DNA from: Macrostomum lignano
Lineage: Eukaryota
Direction: 5' to 3'
DNA: 64,000 nucleotides
Assembly (NCBI GenBank): GCA_002269645.1
Contig: NIVC01000283.1
Coordinates: 558,001 to 622,000, forward strand
Part shown: piece after piece, positions 15,284 through 64,000 of the stretch
Layout: every line of letters begins with the position of its first letter
Numbering within the stretch: the stretch's first letter is position 1
The notes under the pieces: generated by a model
The model's database searches: none
What the model was told of the DNA's origin: nothing
What the model saw: only the letters and a program-made list of their open reading frames with translations
Made by a program: the position numbers and the translations under genes

Positions 15284-15629
15284 AGTAGTAGGTAAAAAGA
15301 CGCTTCTAGACCCAGAACCCCTATTTAACATGCTGATTTGAAGGGCTAGTGGGGGGACACGAGGGGGTACTAAAAAACACATCTAAATACCCTTTACCCC
15401 CCTTAAACACACTACCTCCCACTACCTCCCATTAACACCACCAACTCACACAAATCACACAATATTCACCCATATTCCCAATAACACACCCTATCACAAC
15501 CAAACAATCCCCTCGCGTCCCCCCATTAATAGCCCTTCAAATCATCATTTTCAATAGGTCTGATCTAGAAGCGTCTTTTTACCTACTACTACTTTATAAC
15601 CCCAGGCCGCGCCGCAGGCGCGTAGGGTC
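15284..15629 (+). repeat. Left terminal inverted repeat (346 bp)
   Basis: Reverse complement of 33495-33840; the only differences I found are two homopolymer lengths. Confidence 0.97.
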
Positions 15630-15646
15630 TTTTTCTGTTACTAAAA

Positions 15647-15961
15647 ATGAACCGCGTTTACACCTTTTCAGTTAGTGATACTTTTGAGACTGTTGCTAAA
15701 AATTCAGAGATAATAAAACAACATATTCTGAATGGAATAATTGATGAAGTTTATTTAAAATATGATGACAAAACAGAACTAAAACTTTATCCGCTAGATT
15801 TGGATGGGATGTATGATCTAGAACAAGAGGGTGAGTTAATATTTCAACTTGGAGATTATTTAAATTCAGACGATTGGGAGGTTCGTTCAGACGATTCCAA
15901 CTCAACAAATAGCTCATATGAAACTAGTGATTCAGAGAGCAAAATTGAAATTTTTATGTAA
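15647..15961 (+). CDS. Polinton hypothetical protein (104 aa), paralog of the next ORF
   Basis: ORF with TAAAAATG start; shares the IIDEVY..(K/I)(L/I)YPL motif with 15965-16195. Confidence 0.7.
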   Translation: MNRVYTFSVSDTFETVAKNSEIIKQHILNGIIDEVYLKYDDKTELKLYPLDLDGMYDLEQEGELIFQLGDYLNSDDWEVRSDDSNSTNSSYETSDSESKIEIFM

Positions 15962-15964
15962 AAA

Positions 15965-16195
15965 ATGAAATTAGATAACAGACCCTTCTTTTCAATAACT
16001 GAATCAACCCAAACAATATTCAACGCACTTGATTCAATAAAAAAATTAATAAAGTATAAAATAATCGATGAAGTATATATATATCCAGATATAAAGATAT
16101 ATCCGCTTGAAATTGGAGAATTAGATTATATTTGGGATAAGGGGGAGCAAAGTCTTCTTTTAGCACAATGTTTAAATTGCGAAAAAAATAGTTAA
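15965..16195 (+). CDS. Polinton hypothetical protein (76 aa)
   Basis: Stop-start junction TAAAAAATG with the previous ORF; paralogous motif. Confidence 0.7.
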   Translation: MKLDNRPFFSITESTQTIFNALDSIKKLIKYKIIDEVYIYPDIKIYPLEIGELDYIWDKGEQSLLLAQCLNCEKNS

Positions 16196-16198
16196 AAA

Positions 16199-16423
16199 AT
16201 GAACTATTATTCTGTAACAGAAACAACAATTATTGTTAAAAATATATTTAAAAAAATGAAGGTAAATTATTCCTATATCGGAAATGTGCCAATTAATGAA
16301 CTTAATGATAATTTAAGTTTGATAACTGTTGAACAAATGTCAATAATAATATTAGTAACTATAATAGTAATAATATTGTTTTTATTTGTTATAAAAAATT
16401 TACTACCTTGTTGCCTTAAGTAA
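16199..16423 (+). CDS. Small protein with a C-terminal transmembrane helix (74 aa)
   Basis: Hydrophobic IIILVTIIVIILFLFVI followed by K..PCC; N-terminus YYSVTET resembles the two preceding ORFs. Confidence 0.6.
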   Translation: MNYYSVTETTIIVKNIFKKMKVNYSYIGNVPINELNDNLSLITVEQMSIIILVTIIVIILFLFVIKNLLPCCLK

Positions 16424-18011
16424 CGGATTGAAATGAAACCGGCATTAGCTGGTTTTCATAAAATGAGCCCAATATTTCTTCACCATCCTTATCAGCAATG
16501 ATATAGGTTGTGGGATTTGTATTTAAAACTTTACTGATAGTAAATTTCTCACTTATTTTCCAATATCCTTTTCTTCCCTTTTCAAACTTATCTTTCCATT
16601 TATAGATATAAACAGAATCACCAACTTTAAAACCTTTAGTTTTCTTTTTTTCAAAATCTCCAAAAGTAACCTTAACATTTTCAGGATTGTTATAAGCTTG
16701 TTGAGGAGTCATCTTTATAGCTGAATGATATGAATTGTTATAATCTTTTACGACGTCTGGTAATATTTTTACCCACTTTTGGTTACCATTAAGACTAAAC
16801 TGAAACCATAATTTCTTACCTAAAGTTCTATTAAATCTTTCTATTAATGCGTTTTTACTCTCTCCATAAATAGAATAAATTTTATTAATATACTCCCCAT
16901 TCGCGTCCTTTTTCCTTTCTTGTCCTTTTTCAAAATGATACAATTTATACATGTGAGGATTGTAAAATTCTTTTCCTTCGTCAACACACAACCGTTCGCT
17001 TTTTTCTCCAAGACTTCTAAAAGCAGCAGCAACCACCTCTCCCTTTTTGGATTTTAAAGGAATAGCCCACGCGTAGCGAGTAAAACCATCTAATATTGTT
17101 AAAATATATTTATATCCTTTATCATTTGGCATCGACATTAAATCAGCATACCAAATTTCATTCTTTTTGAAGTTCATGATTTTTCTATAAAATTTAGGTT
17201 TTCGGTATTCTTTATGAAGAACCTTAGCCTTATCATAACTTAGCCCACTACCACTTAATAACAAACATTCGACACAATTATTACCATGTTGGTTGTAATT
17301 AATTCCTAAACCAAATTTAACTTTAGATTGTAGAATTTTTTTAACCATCCACCTAGTTAATCTCTGGCCTACTGATAAGCCTTGTAAGTTATCTAATCCT
17401 TGAATCATTTTTTGATCGGCTTCATGTTTTAATCTTAACGCTTCTTCGGGAGGGTTCTTGTCAGCATCTCTATATGCTAAGTCGTGATAGTATGCTAACC
17501 AATCAATCCCATTTATTGGAATTGAATCAGATTTTGGAGTATTGTCAGGATTTAATCTTAAATCCAGTCTAGTCCCAGGTAGTTTACCCTCAATCTTTCG
17601 AATGAGGCTGGAGCACACCTTAAGCGGCGATGATTACCGCCCATCTCCGTCTGCTCTCTGAACCTTCTCCTTATATTTAAAATACTTAGGAGCTTGGCTG
17701 CGCATTGCCACCATGTCTTCAAGCTTTTTACCATTGGGAACAGGAGTTACCTGTGTTCCTTCAGAAGATTTCTCAACTGAAGTGGTACTTGAAGTTGTAT
17801 GACGGGTTTCACGCAATTTGGAGATGTTGCCACTAATAGTGACTAGCAGTAGCTTTGCTTCTACCACTCAGGCCACGGGATAACCTGCAAACGAGTACCC
17901 TGGAATGTGTAATTCATTTGTATACCTACCAGTAGTAAAGATTGGCGGTAAGCTTGTTAATCCTTTTTGAATATCCAACAAGCCTCCTTCAAACACTAAT
18001 TGATTGCTCAT
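16416..18011 (-). CDS. INT: Parvovirus-type phospholipase A2 domain fused to a retroviral-type DDE integrase; two exons (18011-17883, 17579-16416), 430 aa after splicing
   Basis: Spliced product reads ..ELHIPGYSFAG|PGTRLDLRL..PINGIDWLAYYHDLAY (YxxxGPG calcium loop and HDxxY). Integrase motifs: WYADL, CVDEGKEF, IERFNRTL. Confidence 0.93.
17580..17882 (-). ncRNA. Group I self-splicing intron (IC1-like, 303 nt, no internal homing endonuclease ORF)
   Basis: P1 CAGGU/GCCUG with U.G at the 5' splice site; P3 CAUCUCC/GGAGAUG; P4 UGCGUG/UGCGCA; P5abc with A-rich bulge and GAAA L5b; P6/P6a; P7 GAGAGCA/UGCUCC; P8; J8/7 GCUUAAGGUG; P9 with GAAA loop; P10 with the 3' exon. Removal restores the ORF and the GPG motif. 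Confidence 0.93.
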
Positions 18012-18496
18012 TTTTAATCTTTAAAAAACACGTTTCTATCAGTTTAGTAATTTCCAAATATTGATCACCATATAAAAAATTTAAAGCAAAATCCCCAGTT
18101 AACAATGTAACTCCATTATCAAATACCTTTTGTACGGGGGGCTTTAGTAGTATTATTAATGCAAATATAATATAACTCAAATTCAGGATTAACATTTTTA
18201 AATTCTAATAACTTTTGAATATTTCTAAATCGACTCGATGAATTATCTGTGTTATCAGAAGATTTTAACTCTAACGCAATTTTTCTTTCAGTATGAATTA
18301 AATCAATTTTCTTAATTTTTTCAAAACCAAAATGTTCAATAGCTAATAATTCATAAAGATATCCTAGCCTCATTTGAATTGTTTTAATACGGTTTGCAAT
18401 TATTAAATCATCTTGAAATATCTTATTTAGTATTCTGTCAGAACCTACCTTATCATAAATAGGTTTACAAAGACATTCATTTATCGTATTATCCAT
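17989..18496 (-). CDS. Restriction-endonuclease-like PD-(D/E)xK nuclease (about 168 aa), with one +1 frameshift near 18143
   Basis: GYLYE...IDLIHTERKIALELKSSDNTDNSSS. ORFs 18119-18496 and 17989-18195 join at ACTAAAGCCCCCC. Confidence 0.65.
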
Positions 18497-18517
18497 TTTT
18501 ATAAAAAATAAATTTAA

Positions 18518-19186
18518 TTAAACACCCGTATGTCCAGCAGCTTTCGCGGCAGCTAAAACAAGTTTTCGCGGAGTTTTAAATCCTTCACCAACAGCCGGCT
18601 TGTTATTTATAGAATCAACAATCCTTTTATACAAGTTGGTATTTTTAACAGCTCCTACTCCTAAATCATCATAAAAAATTTTAGCACTTACTAATTCATC
18701 CCTAGTATAAAAATCAGGGTTAAACTTAACCCTAGGGTTAGTAATAATTCTATATGCTCCGCCCAATTCTCTATATAAATCATTTCGATTTTTATTAACT
18801 CGACCAATTCGGTAATTATCATTATCTAACTCCTCTATTGCAATGCTTCGTGGGACATTCGTAAATTGTTCAACTCCATCCCTTTCTGCACGCCTAATCT
18901 CTGCAAGTCTCAATAGCACTTGATCAACATCATAAGTAGGCGGCTCATCTAAAATTTCATCCTCTTTTGGCTCGGTATTCTTAGCAATTTTTTCAAGAAG
19001 GTCTTTATCTGTTTTTTCTAGTTCACTAAGTTTGCCCGTAATAGGATTAACAAAAGGGGCAGCAAATCTTTCGCCAGCGAGTTGTATTCCTAACTTTCTT
19101 TTTTGTAAATTTCTAACAAAATCAGAATATTTTTGCTTTTCTTTATAAATTGCTAACTCTCCATCAACGTCCATAAATTGACTCAT
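18518..19186 (-). CDS. Conserved Polinton structural-module protein (PZ-like), 222 aa
   Basis: FVNPITGKL near the N-terminus and C-terminal GEG..LVLAAAKAAGHTGV resemble a recurrent Polinton ORF; assignment from memory. Confidence 0.5.
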   Translation of the reverse strand: MSQFMDVDGELAIYKEKQKYSDFVRNLQKRKLGIQLAGERFAAPFVNPITGKLSELEKTDKDLLEKIAKNTEPKEDEILDEPPTYDVDQVLLRLAEIRRAERDGVEQFTNVPRSIAIEELDNDNYRIGRVNKNRNDLYRELGGAYRIITNPRVKFNPDFYTRDELVSAKIFYDDLGVGAVKNTNLYKRIVDSINNKPAVGEGFKTPRKLVLAAAKAAGHTGV

Positions 19187-19220
19187 TTTTTAACATAAAA
19201 AACTTTTTTAACTTAAAAAA

Positions 19221-20702
19221 ATGGCTGAAACAAAAACCATATGGAGTGATAAATTTCATTTTAAAAAGCACCGGCAGTATATTAATGAGATCAGGGCAAG
19301 AGATTTAAATTATACCCTACCAACAAGTGATAATTCAAACAATTTTACTACGGGAACGGTAACTTTTGACGTTGGGGCAAGCGACAGCGTTTTAGATATG
19401 AAAAACGCGTTTTTCCGCGTTAGATGGTTGTATACCAGAAACGATGGAACTGCTCTTGCAGCCGGTGATATCCCAGATCGTTCTGGAATTATTATAGAAA
19501 ATGATTGGTTTTATAAATGTTTTTCCCAAGCTCAACTAACTGTTAATGGAGCCGAGGTTGAGACATCAACAAACCCAGCAGAGATTAATGGAGTTTTGAA
19601 ACATTTAAATTATACTTATTTATCAAAACAAGTTGGTGATAGTGTTGGGTGGATGCCTGATAAGGGTAATGGACAAGCAGTAGTTTTCCCTAATGTACAA
19701 AATGCAGCCGGCGCAGATACCGCAGCCCTTATAGCTTATCTTAATACCAATATAGTTCCAGTTGTAACCACCATGACTAACACAAAAGATATTAATACCG
19801 GTTTTATAGATCGTCAGAATAAATTCCCAGTAGCGGTTTTAACCACAGCAAGCGCATATGAGCAAGACTTTTCAATCTTTCCACTATTTGGGTTCTTCTC
19901 ACCAAATCGGGTATGGAAAGGATTAAAATTTGGGGTACAGTTGCAAATATCTGGTGGATATCAGCCTAGGATACTTTATGGAACCTCAATTTCAACCGAT
20001 ATCGCAATTCGTATAGCATCAATTCAATTAGTCGTACCAAAACTAGAGCTAACGGCGCCTCTTTTAGCACATGTTAATAAGCAGATAATGGTTGATCAAG
20101 AAATATTTTATTTGAATCGGCGCCACTTTATGCGAACCATTAACAACAATCAGGATTCATTTCAGTGGCAGATAACGATATCAAAACGTCGGGTGAGATA
20201 TATTTTTGTTTGGTTTAAAATAACAAATAGAAGGAGTAAAAGAGCAAACGGGGATTTATATTGGCTTCAATCAGAGGATGTAGCAGCTCAGGCAGCCACT
20301 GCAACCGACAACGCGGTTTCAGCTATTAACGAGTTTAATGTTCAGAATATCCGCCTGCAGGTTGATGATCAATATTATCCTGTTAAAGAGCCCTTAAATC
20401 TAAACATAGCAAATAATAATGTTAATGATTTTATAAAATATTATCAAGATTATACCAAAAATGAAGCGTATGCTGTTCCTCAGTACACACCCACGGAGTT
20501 TCTAAACATTCACCCAGTAGTTGTTTTTGATCTAACTGCACAGAAAGAAAATGTAGCCAATGTTGGTTTGAATTATATGTTAGAGATTAATAAAACCGGT
20601 AATCAGGCACTAGACGCCCACGTATTGTTTCTAGAGGAATATATATCAATTGCTAAAGCCGACGGAACCGTTGTTCGGGATGCGCCCGTAGATAAAGATT
20701 AG
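19221..20702 (+). CDS. PY: Double jelly-roll major capsid protein (493 aa)
   Basis: Size and motifs: FSQAQLTVNGAEVE, RYIFVWF, NIRLQVDDQYYP, EFLNIHPVVVFDL; adjacent to the ATPase and penton genes. Confidence 0.88.
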   Translation: MAETKTIWSDKFHFKKHRQYINEIRARDLNYTLPTSDNSNNFTTGTVTFDVGASDSVLDMKNAFFRVRWLYTRNDGTALAAGDIPDRSGIIIENDWFYKCFSQAQLTVNGAEVETSTNPAEINGVLKHLNYTYLSKQVGDSVGWMPDKGNGQAVVFPNVQNAAGADTAALIAYLNTNIVPVVTTMTNTKDINTGFIDRQNKFPVAVLTTASAYEQDFSIFPLFGFFSPNRVWKGLKFGVQLQISGGYQPRILYGTSISTDIAIRIASIQLVVPKLELTAPLLAHVNKQIMVDQEIFYLNRRHFMRTINNNQDSFQWQITISKRRVRYIFVWFKITNRRSKRANGDLYWLQSEDVAAQAATATDNAVSAINEFNVQNIRLQVDDQYYPVKEPLNLNIANNNVNDFIKYYQDYTKNEAYAVPQYTPTEFLNIHPVVVFDLTAQKENVANVGLNYMLEINKTGNQALDAHVLFLEEYISIAKADGTVVRDAPVDKD

Positions 20703-20722
20703 TTAAATTATTTACTTAAAAA

Positions 20723-21484
20723 ATGGTAAAAGCAAAACATTATAAAATATTTCCAAATGATCCTTTTCTTTGTTTAGTAATTGGTGGATCGGGCAAAGGA
20801 AAAACCCACTTTGTTTATGACTTGTTAACAACCGATGGAATGTTAGACTATAATAATTTAATAATTTATACTAACAAACCTAGAATAAAATATTATGAAT
20901 TTCTTAAACACGGATTAAAAAACAAATTAAAAAAAGATATCTTATTTAGAATGTTAAGAGCATATGAGCAATATGAGGACGATGATGAACCAAGATTTAA
21001 ACTAACAGACATTGAGGATTTATGTAAAAAAACGGCAGAAGATCCAGAAAATATAGACAACAATTCTCCAACAATTACAATATCAAACAGATTAACTTAT
21101 GACAAAATTCCTAAATATGATAAAACACTAATTATTTTTGACGATTGTATTAATGACGGAGATCAAGAATTGCAAAAAGAAATTTTTGTTAGTGGTAGAG
21201 GAGATGGAATTGGAGCTTTTTATCTTACTCAATCCTTTAGAGAATTAGAATCGATTATAAAAAAGAATGCTAGCTGTTGTGTAATGTTTGATTTAGATGA
21301 CTATGATTTACAAAATATACACGCTAGATTTAATCCGGGGTTGGATACAAAACCATTTAAAAGTATGTGTAAAAAAATTTGGGATGATAGTCAATACAAA
21401 CACATATATGTCAACCCTAGGTTAGAAAGAAGAAATCGAATCTTAACAAATTTGATAAAAGAAGATAATGAGGACGAGGAGTAA
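20723..21484 (+). CDS. ATP: A32/FtsK-like DNA packaging ATPase (253 aa)
   Basis: Walker A GGSGKGKT, Walker B LIIFDD, downstream GR..YLTQS. Confidence 0.93.
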   Translation: MVKAKHYKIFPNDPFLCLVIGGSGKGKTHFVYDLLTTDGMLDYNNLIIYTNKPRIKYYEFLKHGLKNKLKKDILFRMLRAYEQYEDDDEPRFKLTDIEDLCKKTAEDPENIDNNSPTITISNRLTYDKIPKYDKTLIIFDDCINDGDQELQKEIFVSGRGDGIGAFYLTQSFRELESIIKKNASCCVMFDLDDYDLQNIHARFNPGLDTKPFKSMCKKIWDDSQYKHIYVNPRLERRNRILTNLIKEDNEDEE

Positions 21485-21538
21485 AATCTCAAATCTTTGG
21501 TTCTCTTGCCGCCGATGCTATTATTCCCCACTATAAAA

Positions 21539-22324
21539 ATGGCAACAAATTTAGACACTATAAAACAATTGGTAGATCGAACTAATTCAAAATTTAGCAC
21601 AACCTTACAGTTTATAATGACAAGCAGCGAGCAACGGATTCAATTGCGCGATCCGTTACAACTAGATCAAAGCCTAAGTTATCAAATAGGTTTGATACTA
21701 TTTTCGGTTTTTAACATGCCTCAATTAATTAATGCAACAAATAATCAATTTAGATATTCTAAAGATTCCGGAGCCAATTGGACAACTTTTAGCGTTAATC
21801 CAGGGGCGTATAGCTATACCGATTTGAATGCTTACATAGAAGGAGAATTAACGGATAATGGTGATTGGGTAGCTGGTGCGATTGTTATAGGTGTTGATTT
21901 ACCGTCGGGAAGATTCACCCTATCACTAGGATCAGGATATCAGGTTGATTTCACAATTGCAAACTCACTCAGAACCATACTTGGATTTAATTCCCGAATA
22001 GTTACCGCATCAAGCACCGGTGATACCGTGGGAAACATTGAGGGCGGAGTCAATACAATTAATATAACAACCGACATATCAAACGGCGGTTATATAACAG
22101 ATAATAATGGGGTTTTGGTTCAACGTGGAATTATTTATTCAATCCCGTTTCTTGCTGTTCCAATTGGAGAGAAAATGATTGTTGCACCCCAAACCCCAAT
22201 ATATTATCCTTTAAATCAATATAGCGTTCAATCAATTTATATTAGGATCGTAGATGAAAGCGATAGATTAATAAGTTTTGGTGGTCAATCAATAACAGTA
22301 ATTTTACGTATAAAACAGGTTTAA
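21539..22324 (+). CDS. PX: Minor capsid protein (penton, single jelly roll)
   Basis: PLQLD..YQIGL, INATNNQFRY, LRTILGF, PQTPIYYPL, IRIVDESDRLISFGG; ATG chosen at TATAAAAATG. Confidence 0.85.
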   Translation: MATNLDTIKQLVDRTNSKFSTTLQFIMTSSEQRIQLRDPLQLDQSLSYQIGLILFSVFNMPQLINATNNQFRYSKDSGANWTTFSVNPGAYSYTDLNAYIEGELTDNGDWVAGAIVIGVDLPSGRFTLSLGSGYQVDFTIANSLRTILGFNSRIVTASSTGDTVGNIEGGVNTINITTDISNGGYITDNNGVLVQRGIIYSIPFLAVPIGEKMIVAPQTPIYYPLNQYSVQSIYIRIVDESDRLISFGGQSITVILRIKQV

Positions 22325-22334
22325 TATAGTAAAA

Positions 22335-33494: not shown

Positions 33495-33840
33495 GACCCT
33501 ACGCGCCTGCGGCGCGGCCTGGGGTTATAAAGTAGTAGTAGGTAAAAAGACGCTTCTAGATCAGACCTATTGAAAATGATGATTTGAAGGGCTATTAATG
33601 GGGGACGCGAGGGGATTGTTTGGTTGTGATAGGGTGTGTTATTGGGAATATGGGTGAATATTGTGTGATTTGTGTGAGTTGGTGGTGTTAATGGGAGGTA
33701 GTGGGAGGTAGTGTGTTTAAGGGGGGTAAAGGGTATTTAGATGTGTTTTTTTAGTACCCCCTCGTGTCCCCCCACTAGCCCTTCAAATCAGCATGTTAAA
33801 TAGGGGTTCTGGGTCTAGAAGCGTCTTTTTACCTACTACT
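33495..33840 (-). repeat. Right terminal inverted repeat (346 bp)
   Basis: Mirror of 15284-15629; followed by TSD GAGCAT. Confidence 0.97.
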
Positions 33841-60217: not shown

Positions 60218-63200
60218 ATGTTAAAAGCCAATCCAGCAAAAGATTTGGTCAACAAATATTTTTCAAAAGGCGTCTCATTTCAAGACAAAAGTAATTTACT
60301 AAAAGAAGCATGTAAACAAAAGTTTAACACTGACCCTGGTCACCTTGGAAGCTATGAAAAACAGTTGGAAATCATCAATCAATTAGAAGCCAACCAGTAT
60401 GCGCCTATAAAAAATCCTGCAGAGGAACACCAAATGAGGAGTCGAAACTTAGTTAACAAATCGAAACTCTCACTGGTGAAAAAGCAAAGTACCCACAAAA
60501 TAAGCAGGAACAAAGAAATTAGAGCAATTAATCCATTTAAAAGAGTCGGAGCTTGCCATTGAAGAGATTAATTTTGCACAGAGGAAGTTTACATAACATT
60601 ACATAGAGTACACAATCCCAATAAACGACACCACCGCAAACATCTACGACTATAAAGACAGCATCCAATCAGTTGTTGATCACACACTCAAAACACGCAA
60701 GACCTTTAAACTACAGATATCATTCAAGATTGCGTTTTATATGCCTGCGAAACCCACTGAGCATCTCGAGTATTACATAACAACAAAGGCGAAACCATTC
60801 ACCCCTACAGACACACTGGATCCTTTCCTTCAAGATGTCACTAAGAAAATTAAAGCGTTTACATTCAGAGGTTCCGGATGGGTCGTGGGAGGGATTCAAA
60901 GAGCGACTGTCATGGTCATGAAATATGACCCACTTAAAGCCTCCTCTTATATACAGCTCCCACACAAGCTAGCCGGCAAAAAAGCTTGCATAAATGTTAA
61001 AAATAAAGACAATTGCTGTGCTTTATGGGCAGTTCTTTCTGCACTTCTTCATGATAGTGTCCCTCACCACCCCGAAAGAACCTCAAATTATCAAAATTAT
61101 TTCAACTACTATCTCATCGAATGCGAAAAGAAGGGAATCAGGTTTGACAAATGAGGCTTGGCGATCTCTCAGATCCCAAAGCTAGAAGAAGTGTTTAATA
61201 ACAAAATTAGAATCAGTCTTTGAGTGGAGTGAAAAAAGCCGAGAAAGTTCAACCGGTCAGATGTAGCAAAGACGTTTTAGATCCTGAGGGGAAAAGGCGG
61301 ACTGAAGTGGATCTTCTAGTGATTGGTAATTTACTAGAGGAGGCTCACTATGTTTGGATTAAAGATCTTTCAAGACTCATTCACAAGCAGTTGAATAATC
61401 ATCACGAGGCTGTTGCCATCTGCCGCTTGTGCCTTAAGCATTACAGTGGACCTGAACGCTTTGAAAAACTAGCAGAGCATGAATTATCATGTGAGGATCA
61501 CCCGACCAACTGCTCTCTTCCTTCAGCTGAAGAGAAGTATGCTCAATCGTGCAAGAAACTCAAAAACAAACTCAAACTCAAAAACATATCCCCAATTCAG
61601 TAGCATATGCCTATATTAATACAAAAGGACTTGTTGAGTATAATTACTTCTTTGGAGAGCAGTGTGAGGAGCAGTTTATTGCCAGAATGTTAGAGTTGCA
61701 AAAAGTTATTAGCACTCTTCAACCTGTTCCAATAATGATGACTAAGGAGGATGAAAGCAATTTCCTATCAGCAACTCATTGCTACATCTGCAGGAAACAG
61801 TTAACTTGCACTGATATTAAAAACCCCACCGTTGGGGACCACTGCCATTATACTGGGAAATTTAGAGGTGCAGCGCATAACACTTGTAATTTAAAGCTAA
61901 AATCAAACATTCATGATCTATCGATATTTTGTCACAACGCAAAGAACTATGACATGCATTTAATAATTGAAAAAATTGGCATGATTCCAGACATACACCT
62001 TGATTGCATCGCAGAGAACAAGGAGAAGTTTGTGTTGATATTAAACAGGATAATTCGGGTAAAGGTGAAGGTTCGAGTGAAGGTAAGATAAGACTGAAGG
62101 ATTCATATCAATTTCTAGCTGCCAGTCTAGACGAACTAAGCAAGAATCTGAAAGATGAACAATGTACATATACAAAGATGTTTGCAAGTAAAATTAACAA
62201 CAGTGATGAATCATTTAAAATTTTAAGGAAAAAAGGCTTCTACCCCTATGAGAATATTACTGGGTATCACGTATTTAAAGAAGGTTTACCAACACAGGAG
62301 AAGTTCTTTTTAAAGCTAACAGACTCTGGAATCTCTGCCAAAGACTATGAGCACGCGAAGCATGTCTATATTTACTTTAATTGCCAAAACTTCTTCCAGT
62401 ATCACCTGCTTTACCTCTTCACAGACGTTTTTCTGCTGGCTGATGTGTTGGAACCTTCAGATACACCTGGTACACAGCATATGGCGTCGATCAAGTACAT
62501 TGTGTCTCTCCCTACAACTAGCTGGGAATCTTTGCTTAAAATGAAATGGGATCAAGATCCAGATTGGTACATTGAACTTCTTACAGACATTGACATGTAC
62601 AATTTTGTCGAATCGTCAAAACGAGAAGGAATCTCAATTTGCGTTAACAGGTATACAAAAGCAAACAATCCCTATATTGAATCTTCCACCTTCCAAATTC
62701 CACCAGAGCTTCACGACTATTTCTCTGACTTTCCACCCTTCCCAGAGAACATCAAGTGCCCGAAAATAATCGAAACTCCTAATGGAACTTGTCACCTGTC
62801 AGGAACAGAAAAAGAACATACAGAGAAACTAACACAGAATCTAAACAACAAAACACGTTACAAAATCCATTACAAACTGCTTCAGTATTTTATCTCACTT
62901 GGTTGCAGGGTCACCAAAGTTCACAGGGCTCTTACATTTACAGAGGAAGCGTGGATGAAACCCTACATTGATAAGAACACCCAGTTTAGGACCAAAGCAA
63001 CCAACGTCTTTGACAAGAACCTCTTTAAGTTGGCCAACAACTCTGTCTATGGCAAGACTCTTGAGAATGAGCGGAAAATAACAAACCTGAAACTTGTTAC
63101 CTCATCAGAGCCTGCTGTTATTCAGGCAAATATGTCAAAGCCAACATTCAAAGAACTCCATATCTTTAATAGCTCATAATTCATTGGTTCATCATAATCA

Positions 63201-63505
63201 TCATAGCATCATAATTCATTGGGTTGAGAGCAAAGTCCTATTTTGTAAAATGTGAGTCGACAGACCCAATCAAAAAATCAAAGGGAATTCCGAAACGTGT
63301 GGTTAGGAAGGAAATTAATGAAGCTGAATACAGAGGCGCCTTGAATTGCAAAAAAAGACATCTAATGAGTTCTCAAAGCTACAATCTAAAAACCATATTA
63401 TTCACACAATTCAGCAGAAGAAGATTGGACTGTCAGGTGCAGATAACAAGAGATTCATTTTTGATGACAATATTAACAGTCTACCGTTCGGGCATTGGAG
63501 ATTAG
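60218..63505 (+). pseudogene. POLB: Fragmented protein-primed PolB
   Basis: RGSGW..SSYIQLP..INVKN; DHCHYTGKFRGAAH..HNAKNYDMH; KGFYPYE; FKLANNSVYGKTLEN; RAKSY. Many frameshifts; the DxNxLY and YxDTDS blocks were not found. Confidence 0.9.
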
Positions 63506-63620
63506 GCTTAGGAGGTGGAGGTTAGGTTCGGGAACTGGAGGTTAGATTCGGGCACTGGAGATTAGGAGATTAGGAGATTGGGTTTAGGTTTAAGAGAAAG
63601 TTTAATAAACCTCATAAAAA

Positions 63621-64000
63621 ATGACGACAAATAACTTTGTTGAAGATTTGGCTAACGAACTGGAAATCCCAAACTTTAGAAGAATATTTATGAGGGACAC
63701 TGCCTGATTTTTCTCTAAGAAAAGAATCATGAACTTTGACACCACCGATAAACCAGGATCTCAGTGGGTTTGCTGGGTGATTGATTCCGATCGCAAGCAC
63801 AAGTGTTATTACTTTGATAGCTATGGGACGGCAGTACCAGAAGAGCTAAGAATTTATATGAAGGGGAAAAAGAATAAAAACATTTATCGCTCAGACTTTA
63901 TTCTCCAAGGTCTTAGCAGTGATATTTGCGGTGAGCTGTGCATGACTGTTTTGTATGCAATGACCAAAACACGAAAGACCTACAAGGAAATTATTCTTAC
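63621..64000 (+). pseudogene. PRO: Adenain-like protease, disrupted and partial
   Basis: FMRDTA*..NFDTTDKPGSQWV..YFDSYG..Q..SDICG; in-frame stop, and Gln in place of the catalytic His. Confidence 0.85.

Follow-up and report, generated by a model that had tools for sequence, protein, structure and literature searches.

The window analysed here, i.e. a whole stretch of 64,000 nt from Macrostomum lignano (contig NIVC01000283.1, positions 558,001 to 622,000 of the forward strand), contains a Polinton in which a gene for a restriction-type nuclease runs into the start of a PLA2 gene that is itself interrupted by a group I intron (Table 1). The locus thus raises the question of whether nuclease and intron form a collaborative homing pair that spreads between Polinton copies, as the original prediction had it, and, if so, how an element with such an enzyme is spared by it.

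A Polinton with a nuclease gene beside a group I intron

The element is bounded by perfect terminal inverted repeats (TIRs) and shows the Polinton hallmarks, i.e. TIRs, pPolB, RVE integrase and A32 ATPase. The integrase and the ATPase have Pfam matches; the genes that we take to be pPolB, protease and capsid were labelled from motifs and position, without a profile match. Several ORFs stayed without annotation after the Pfam and NCBIfam scans, and the gene upstream of the nuclease (18518-19186, minus strand) had no Pfam, PHROG or NCBIfam match. An ORF at 23653-25038 (plus strand) encodes an F5/8 type C (discoidin) domain after a repeat-rich stretch and is possibly a fibre or receptor-binding protein. 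No methyltransferase was detected among 19 ORFs compared with Pfam and 16 compared with NCBIfam (ORFs of at least 100 aa), in line with the earlier failure to recognise one; a methylase might still be provided in trans. PLA2 and the RVE integrase form a single in-frame fusion (16416-18011, minus strand), an arrangement also present in the two other lineages described below (family B and contig L211), so that splicing of the intron would gate expression of the full-length PLA2-integrase. Since one class of animal adintoviruses is characterised by PLA2 genes, according to the accessible text of 10.1101/697771, the element was treated as a possible animal provirus.

Table 1. Coordinates in the window of the Polinton and of the features around the nuclease gene and the intron
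Feature	Position	Strand	Remarks
Complete Polinton/Maverick	15284..33840	.	18,557 bp; TIRs 15284-15629 and 33495-33840
PLA2 exon 2, in frame with RVE integrase	16416..17588	-	CC of the split site at 17579-17578
ORF-less group I intron, about 294 nt	17589..17882	-	Rfam RF00028
PLA2 exon 1	17883..18011	-	Ends ...GCAGGT; GGT is the first three bases of the split GGNCC
Nuclease C-terminal part, other frame	17989..18132	-	Overlaps the PLA2 start codon
Eco47II-like PD-(D/E)xK nuclease, N-terminal 125 codons	18119..18496	-	All catalytic residues; frame-broken here
Conserved upstream gene, function not assigned	18518..19186	-	One border of the exchangeable endonuclease slot

The PD-(D/E)xK motifs that had been noticed in the nuclease ORF are borne out by comparison with its relatives: the 125-aa ORF (18496-18119, minus strand) carries E49, D65, E76-L-K78 and NTDNSSS, all of them invariant or almost so across 20 homologs, and in a family alignment of 124 rows D65 is found in 122, E76 in 119 and K78 in 123. 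At about codon 120-125 the frame is interrupted, with the remainder in another frame, which overlaps the PLA2 ATG at 18011 and ends at 17989, i.e. 107 nt from the 5' splice site (17883|17882), just as the original prediction had placed it. Judging from its paralogs, the gene appears to be functional in its family although the window copy is broken: an unbroken ORF of 168 aa is found in a natural copy at another place in the genome (L003/L018; 98 % identity), 26 of the 37 free-standing paralogs among the loci listed are intact ORFs of at least 160 aa with continuous N- and C-terminal parts, and dN/dS is 0.22 among 15 distinct intact free-standing copies.

The intron scores 71.3 bits against Rfam RF00028 (17892-17589, minus strand), has a group I catalytic core and a P1 helix with a U.G pair at the 5' splice site, and contains no endonuclease ORF, as had been stated. 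P1 folds, this short hairpin not being significant against shuffles. A regular-expression survey for P7 returned no matches; in the Rfam alignments the P7 strands read GAGCA/UGCUC in the window, GACUU/AAGUC in locus L093 and GACUA/UAGUC in L211, and these compensatory changes suggest that the ribozyme is under selection. It is in itself unusual for a nuclear-integrated element to have a group I intron within one of its protein genes.

The position of the window intron, fixed by the intronless alleles L166, L174 and L175, lies between the Gly and Pro codons of the PLA2 motif (GGT|CC). Because Gly-Pro codons (GGN CCN) always spell GGNCC, an intron between them destroys this site; indeed GGNCC stands at the junction in all ten intronless alleles read and is missing there from intron-bearing alleles. 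The ancestral 3' junction of the window intron is at 17580, where the window copy has an A. Within the window's own family (family A), 74 of 99 introns end in A at this junction and every one of the 74 has an in-frame G nine bases upstream; these nine bases always read Gly-Lys-Leu in the A-ending copies, while 14 of the 25 G-ending copies deviate. A-ending copies would likely be spliced at this G (17589 in the window), and the shift of the 3' splice site suggests that three residues are added to a PLA2 loop. Four sets of contigs compared with the locus gave no join across the intron, a result that says nothing either way on splicing.

Predicted target of the nuclease and erasure of GGNCC

The window ORF matches PF09553 (Eco47II) with E=1.3e-4 and 22 bits, short of the gathering score of 25.9, and 33 of 42 relatives scanned (from 150 listed) match the same family at E<=1e-3, many of them above gathering. 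The family includes giant-virus members, and two of the 42 relatives are fused to C5 methyltransferases. In ESM space the nuclease has the Eco47II and EcoO109I clusters as neighbours (0.91-0.93). The structural model of the intact paralog L003 (pLDDT 89) is a single domain of 168 aa without an extra DNA-binding domain, and its best PDB match was EcoO109I both in Foldseek (E=1.1e-4) and in VIA-align (Z 9.6 with 165 of 168 residues aligned; next Z 6.5), at 12-15 % sequence identity. A PDB sequence search gave nothing meaningful and a BFVD fold search no match under E=1e-3. As modelled, the nuclease therefore is a restriction-type PD-(D/E)xK fold with its catalytic residues in place, and the fold check called for earlier came out in favour of a nuclease.

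The original prediction had pointed to I-Ssp6803I, a PD-(D/E)xK homing endonuclease that recognises a long site as a tetramer, as the precedent. Homing endonuclease sites are generally about 14-40 bp long. Neither PDB fold search listed I-Ssp6803I among its hits, and in contrast to the long site of that enzyme the one predicted here is short. In Pfam family, predicted fold and catalytic E-D-ExK residues, the nuclease resembles the Type IIP enzymes Eco47II (GGNCC) and EcoO109I (RGGNCCY); unlike them, it comes without a detected cognate methyltransferase, has 168 rather than 264 aa and is encoded, in a eukaryotic element, within a group I intron or next to one. The accessible parts of two reports give GGNCC as the target of an Eco47II homolog (PMC10305163) and RG^GNCCY as that of EcoO109I (PMC3089450). 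Distant homology and the site avoidance described below together predict that the nuclease cuts GGNCC. RGGNCCY was rejected as the target, as GGNCC sites outside this longer word are likewise absent (13 expected).

An enzyme cutting GGNCC in an element without a methylase would oblige that element to avoid GGNCC, and avoidance is complete in the window Polinton: its 18,557 bp contain no GGNCC where 12.1-17.9 are expected, which makes this the most depleted of the 256 words of the 2N2 type. The host flanks have 102 sites in 45 kb (97-122 expected), and sites resume 18 bp beyond the right TIR. The proteins of the element likewise contain no Gly-Pro in 4,767 residues (8.7 expected), and zero GGNCC was reached by none of 2000 codon-order shuffles and by 11 of 2000 synonymous shuffles. 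Next in depletion within 15284-33840 comes CCNGG (11 vs 19-28 expected).

The same picture extends to other copies. The 37 loci with a free-standing nuclease have no GGNCC in 90.7 kb (116 expected), and family-A loci without an Eco47II-like nuclease have seven in 234 kb (256 expected), all in two loci. Since the latter are just as free of sites, avoidance is a property of the lineage and is not specific to copies with the free-standing gene. In eight long family-A spans there are four sites in 64 kb, two of them at the junction; L216, L219 and L220, with extra sites within apparent insertions, were left out of this count. In family B, a related family described below, intron loci have eight sites in 66.6 kb (98 expected), the stretch L232 has none in 10 kb (10 expected), and two other stretches have GGNCC only outside the parts that align to L232. 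Two intronless elements have one extra site each, so the predicted cut would not always be unique. As controls, another pPolB region in the window has three sites (4.9 expected), the viral PLA2 element L356 has nine (17 expected), and 39 viral loci show a median observed/expected ratio of 0.71, with one locus at zero. Two side observations concern sequences outside these families: remnants of a second, distant Polinton lineage at 60700-64000 of the window (pPolB about 34 % identical, and a protease-like ORF) keep their GGNCC sites, and L294, a viral contig of 20 kb, combines a group I intron motif with the absence of GGNCC (12.5 expected), without a nuclease match in the part examined.

Erasure this complete implies strong selection and suggests that these Polintons are active viruses that replicate and encounter one another. 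It also bears on the nature of the enzyme. A conventional long-site homing endonuclease on a restriction fold would spare host DNA, and the absence of GGNCC could then have another cause, e.g. an enzyme or methylase of a helper virus, which would suit the giant-virus members and methyltransferase fusions of the family and the avoidance seen in copies without the nuclease. On the other hand, the absent word is exactly the known target of the family, its absence is complete rather than partial, and the single-domain model offers no additional DNA-binding domain, so that we consider a long target quite improbable. The avoidance data point to a short, restriction-type site of 5 bp with specificity provided by genome-wide erasure, and an enzyme resembling I-Ssp6803I is accordingly not what they favour. 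A short, frequent site unrelated to the exon junction had been named as evidence against homing; the predicted site is short, but GGNCC is exactly the exon junction.

Distribution of nuclease and intron among Polinton copies

Copies were collected by searches of the species' own 764-Mb assembly, taking the best 40-150 candidates of each and reading stretches of sequence, which gave at least 189 de-duplicated loci; 17 of the 189, fragments or loci missing one exon, were left out of the counts. Among the loci listed, family A comprises 37 copies with a free-standing nuclease and an ORF-less intron, 97 with the intron but without an Eco47II-like nuclease and 3 (of 137) without the intron. Family B, with a PLA2 about 60 % identical, comprises 28 listed copies in which a nuclease of the same family lies inside an intron at the same site, its ORF reading into the ribozyme core, and 7 intronless copies, all of which carry GGNCC at the junction. 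Family-B intron copies were found mostly via the nuclease, and ORF-less introns could therefore be under-sampled there. The arrangement recurs in L211, an independent metagenomic contig with the nuclease inside an intron at the same PLA2 site, and in five of eight database homologs the protein runs out into translated intron core. The nuclease is thus encoded in the very element that interrupts its predicted target (28 family-B loci and L211) or beside it (37 family-A loci, among those listed).

None of the 65 listed nuclease-bearing loci with both exons is intronless. A junction-spanning search returned the three family-A alleles and about 31 further, family-B, intronless matches, and none of these 34 lies on a contig with a listed nuclease match when the two lists are compared by inspection. 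Pooled over families, nuclease and intron are associated (p=0.014), a result driven by family B, where the linkage is physical. Within family A the intron accompanies 37 of 37 nuclease copies and 97 of 100 copies without the gene among the loci listed, so that no significant association is seen (Fisher p=0.56). The proposed collaborative pair is hence upheld in part: the predicted target coincides with the exon junction and sister elements carry the nuclease inside the same-site intron, but joint spread of the free-standing gene and the intron is not borne out, 97 of the 134 listed intron copies of family A being without the nuclease and most of these having another gene in its place.

This other gene occupies the same slot between the upstream gene and PLA2. 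In family-A copies without the Eco47II-like gene, 89 of 93 slot ORFs belong to one family (about 90 loci, e.g. L166:1525-2094 and L174:1525-2094), with a PHROG match to endonuclease VII (E=4e-9; Endo VII/HNH-like), and both kinds of slot gene share the start context and overlap the PLA2 ATG. In L159 (G000:C1429) the slot holds a third, unrelated, acidic ORF of 155 aa. Given its predominance, and considering that F-CphI uses an Endo VII motif according to the accessible text of PMC6083498, the HNH-like gene might be the real collaborative partner of the family-A intron, with the Eco47II-like gene as an escaped passenger competing for the slot. However, the HNH-like gene is present in all three intronless family-A alleles, protection against it therefore does not require the intron, and the erasure of GGNCC would be left without an explanation; of the readings weighed here, we find this the hardest to credit.

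The slot changed state 13 times on the FastTree tree of the downstream gene, 21 times on that of the upstream gene and 18 times on that of the intron, and such frequent switching, which would fit biased gene conversion into empty alleles, may equally be general recombination. In the best trees of the nuclease (20 rows; outgroup of six relatives whose context is not known) the free-standing clade is nested among intron-encoded proteins, and a single intron-encoded clade is not rejected by the AU test (p=0.104); an escape of the nuclease from the intron to the free-standing state is a lead only. Among viral contigs, a scan with the nuclease alignment gave 177 pattern matches of which none was confirmed, a scan for the intron motif gave 122 loci, none with the nuclease or a window-type PLA2 (positive controls worked), and a PLA2 scan gave one locus.

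Proposed mechanism and comparison with known systems

Taken together, we think it probable that the nuclease cuts short sites, that erasure has left it almost a single target on these elements, and that the intron provides immunity at the remaining site, with homing as the consequence. The restriction-type nuclease would cut GGNCC although its Polinton lacks a detectable methyltransferase, and site erasure together with the intron, which is predicted to destroy the target if this is indeed GGNCC, would protect the owner element from its own enzyme. An intronless sister element would offer one site, or nearly one, precisely at the intron insertion point, and the intron would be transferred when the cut is repaired from a copy that has it. 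The gene inside the intron would then travel along in family B, as in a classical mobile intron, and in family A co-conversion would carry the free-standing gene, which lies 107 nt away. There it occupies the slot shared with the Endo VII/HNH-like gene, and would be viable in it because almost every copy already has the intron. The persistence of about 31 intronless family-B matches is a counterpoint to homing.

Homing by itself also gives no explanation for the fact that host DNA is full of GGNCC, so that expression in the nucleus should be toxic. As avoidance leaves host DNA unprotected, expression would have to be limited in time or place, or would itself be the weapon. The same enzyme might then serve mainly against the DNA of the host, a helper virus or rival Polintons, with erasure and intron as self-protection and homing as incidental. 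GGNCC is abundant in the host flanks and in another Polinton lineage, giant-virus restriction enzymes have been proposed to exclude competitors or recycle host DNA (in the accessible part of PMC7253447), and purifying selection persists in family A, where 3 of 137 listed copies are intronless targets. Yet family B and L211 have the gene within the intron, with its ORF reading into the ribozyme core as in homing endonucleases, and it is optional, most family-A copies being without it. A mainly offensive role is thus unlikely in our view, but an attack on host or competitor DNA, which the original prediction had offered as its alternative, may accompany homing.

Both functions could be combined. 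We regard it as an even question whether the whole constitutes a methylase-free restriction system, i.e. a 5-bp cutter, erasure of every site and of Gly-Pro, and an intron as antidote at the catalytic Gly-Pro, that homes among kin and shreds host or rival DNA. Long targets are commonly regarded as a requirement of homing endonucleases, and a methylase as one of type II restriction enzymes. In these Polintons, the composition of the genome appears to stand in for both, and the ribozyme for the methylase at the last site. If so, an ordinary restriction enzyme would act as a single-site homing endonuclease among kin and as a shredder of host or rival DNA.

Returning to homing through erasure and intron immunity as the favoured reading, the closest precedent is the collaborative homing of F-CphI and the psbA intron of cyanophage S-PM2, as described in the accessible parts of PMC6083498 and PMC3984707. 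[quoted passage not shown] Unlike F-CphI (Endo VII) as portrayed in those parts, the present nuclease belongs to a eukaryotic Polinton, has an Eco47II/EcoO109I-like PD-(D/E)xK fold and a predicted 5-bp target made rare by erasure, and shares its slot with a second, unrelated nuclease. The locus would represent a novel form of collaborative homing that likely combines a restriction enzyme of short target with erasure throughout the genome. If true, this would extend collaborative homing from phages to Polintons and be a natural case of a restriction enzyme that has become a homing endonuclease.

PacI is a rare-cutting HNH enzyme with an 8-bp site. Like this solitary restriction enzyme, which lacks a methyltransferase and relies on site absence for self-protection (accessible text of PMC3488263), the Polinton would be protected through missing sites; in contrast to PacI, the predicted site is 5 bp long and the last one is split by a ribozyme. 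The restriction-modification systems of chloroviruses and marseilleviruses similarly place a bacteria-derived restriction enzyme in a eukaryotic virus, possibly against competitors, but protect their owners by methylation, according to the accessible text of PMC7253447.

Searches of full-text literature, largely from outside subscription journals, found no Eco47II-like intron nuclease, Polinton PLA2 intron or GGNCC erasure. Collaborative homing was raised as a speculation for elements of entomopoxviruses (accessible part of PMC11296320), and the consulted portion of a preprint on nematode Polintons mentions only HNH and VSR domains, in pPolB. Protist Polinton-like viruses, in the accessible text of PMC12220804, have RF00028 introns of similar length (about 300-380 nt), together with GIY-YIG and HNH genes; these introns were placed in a short gene that lies upstream of MCP and is left unannotated, and no endonuclease was assigned to them. 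The same text describes no Eco47II-like enzyme, PLA2 site or site avoidance, and its supplementary tables S11-S12 may list related introns.

Finally, L018, L130, L011, L169 and family-B introns share a short palindrome, about 30 nt long (…GTTCGCGAACC…-like), that is inserted at variable spots beside the slot and within introns.
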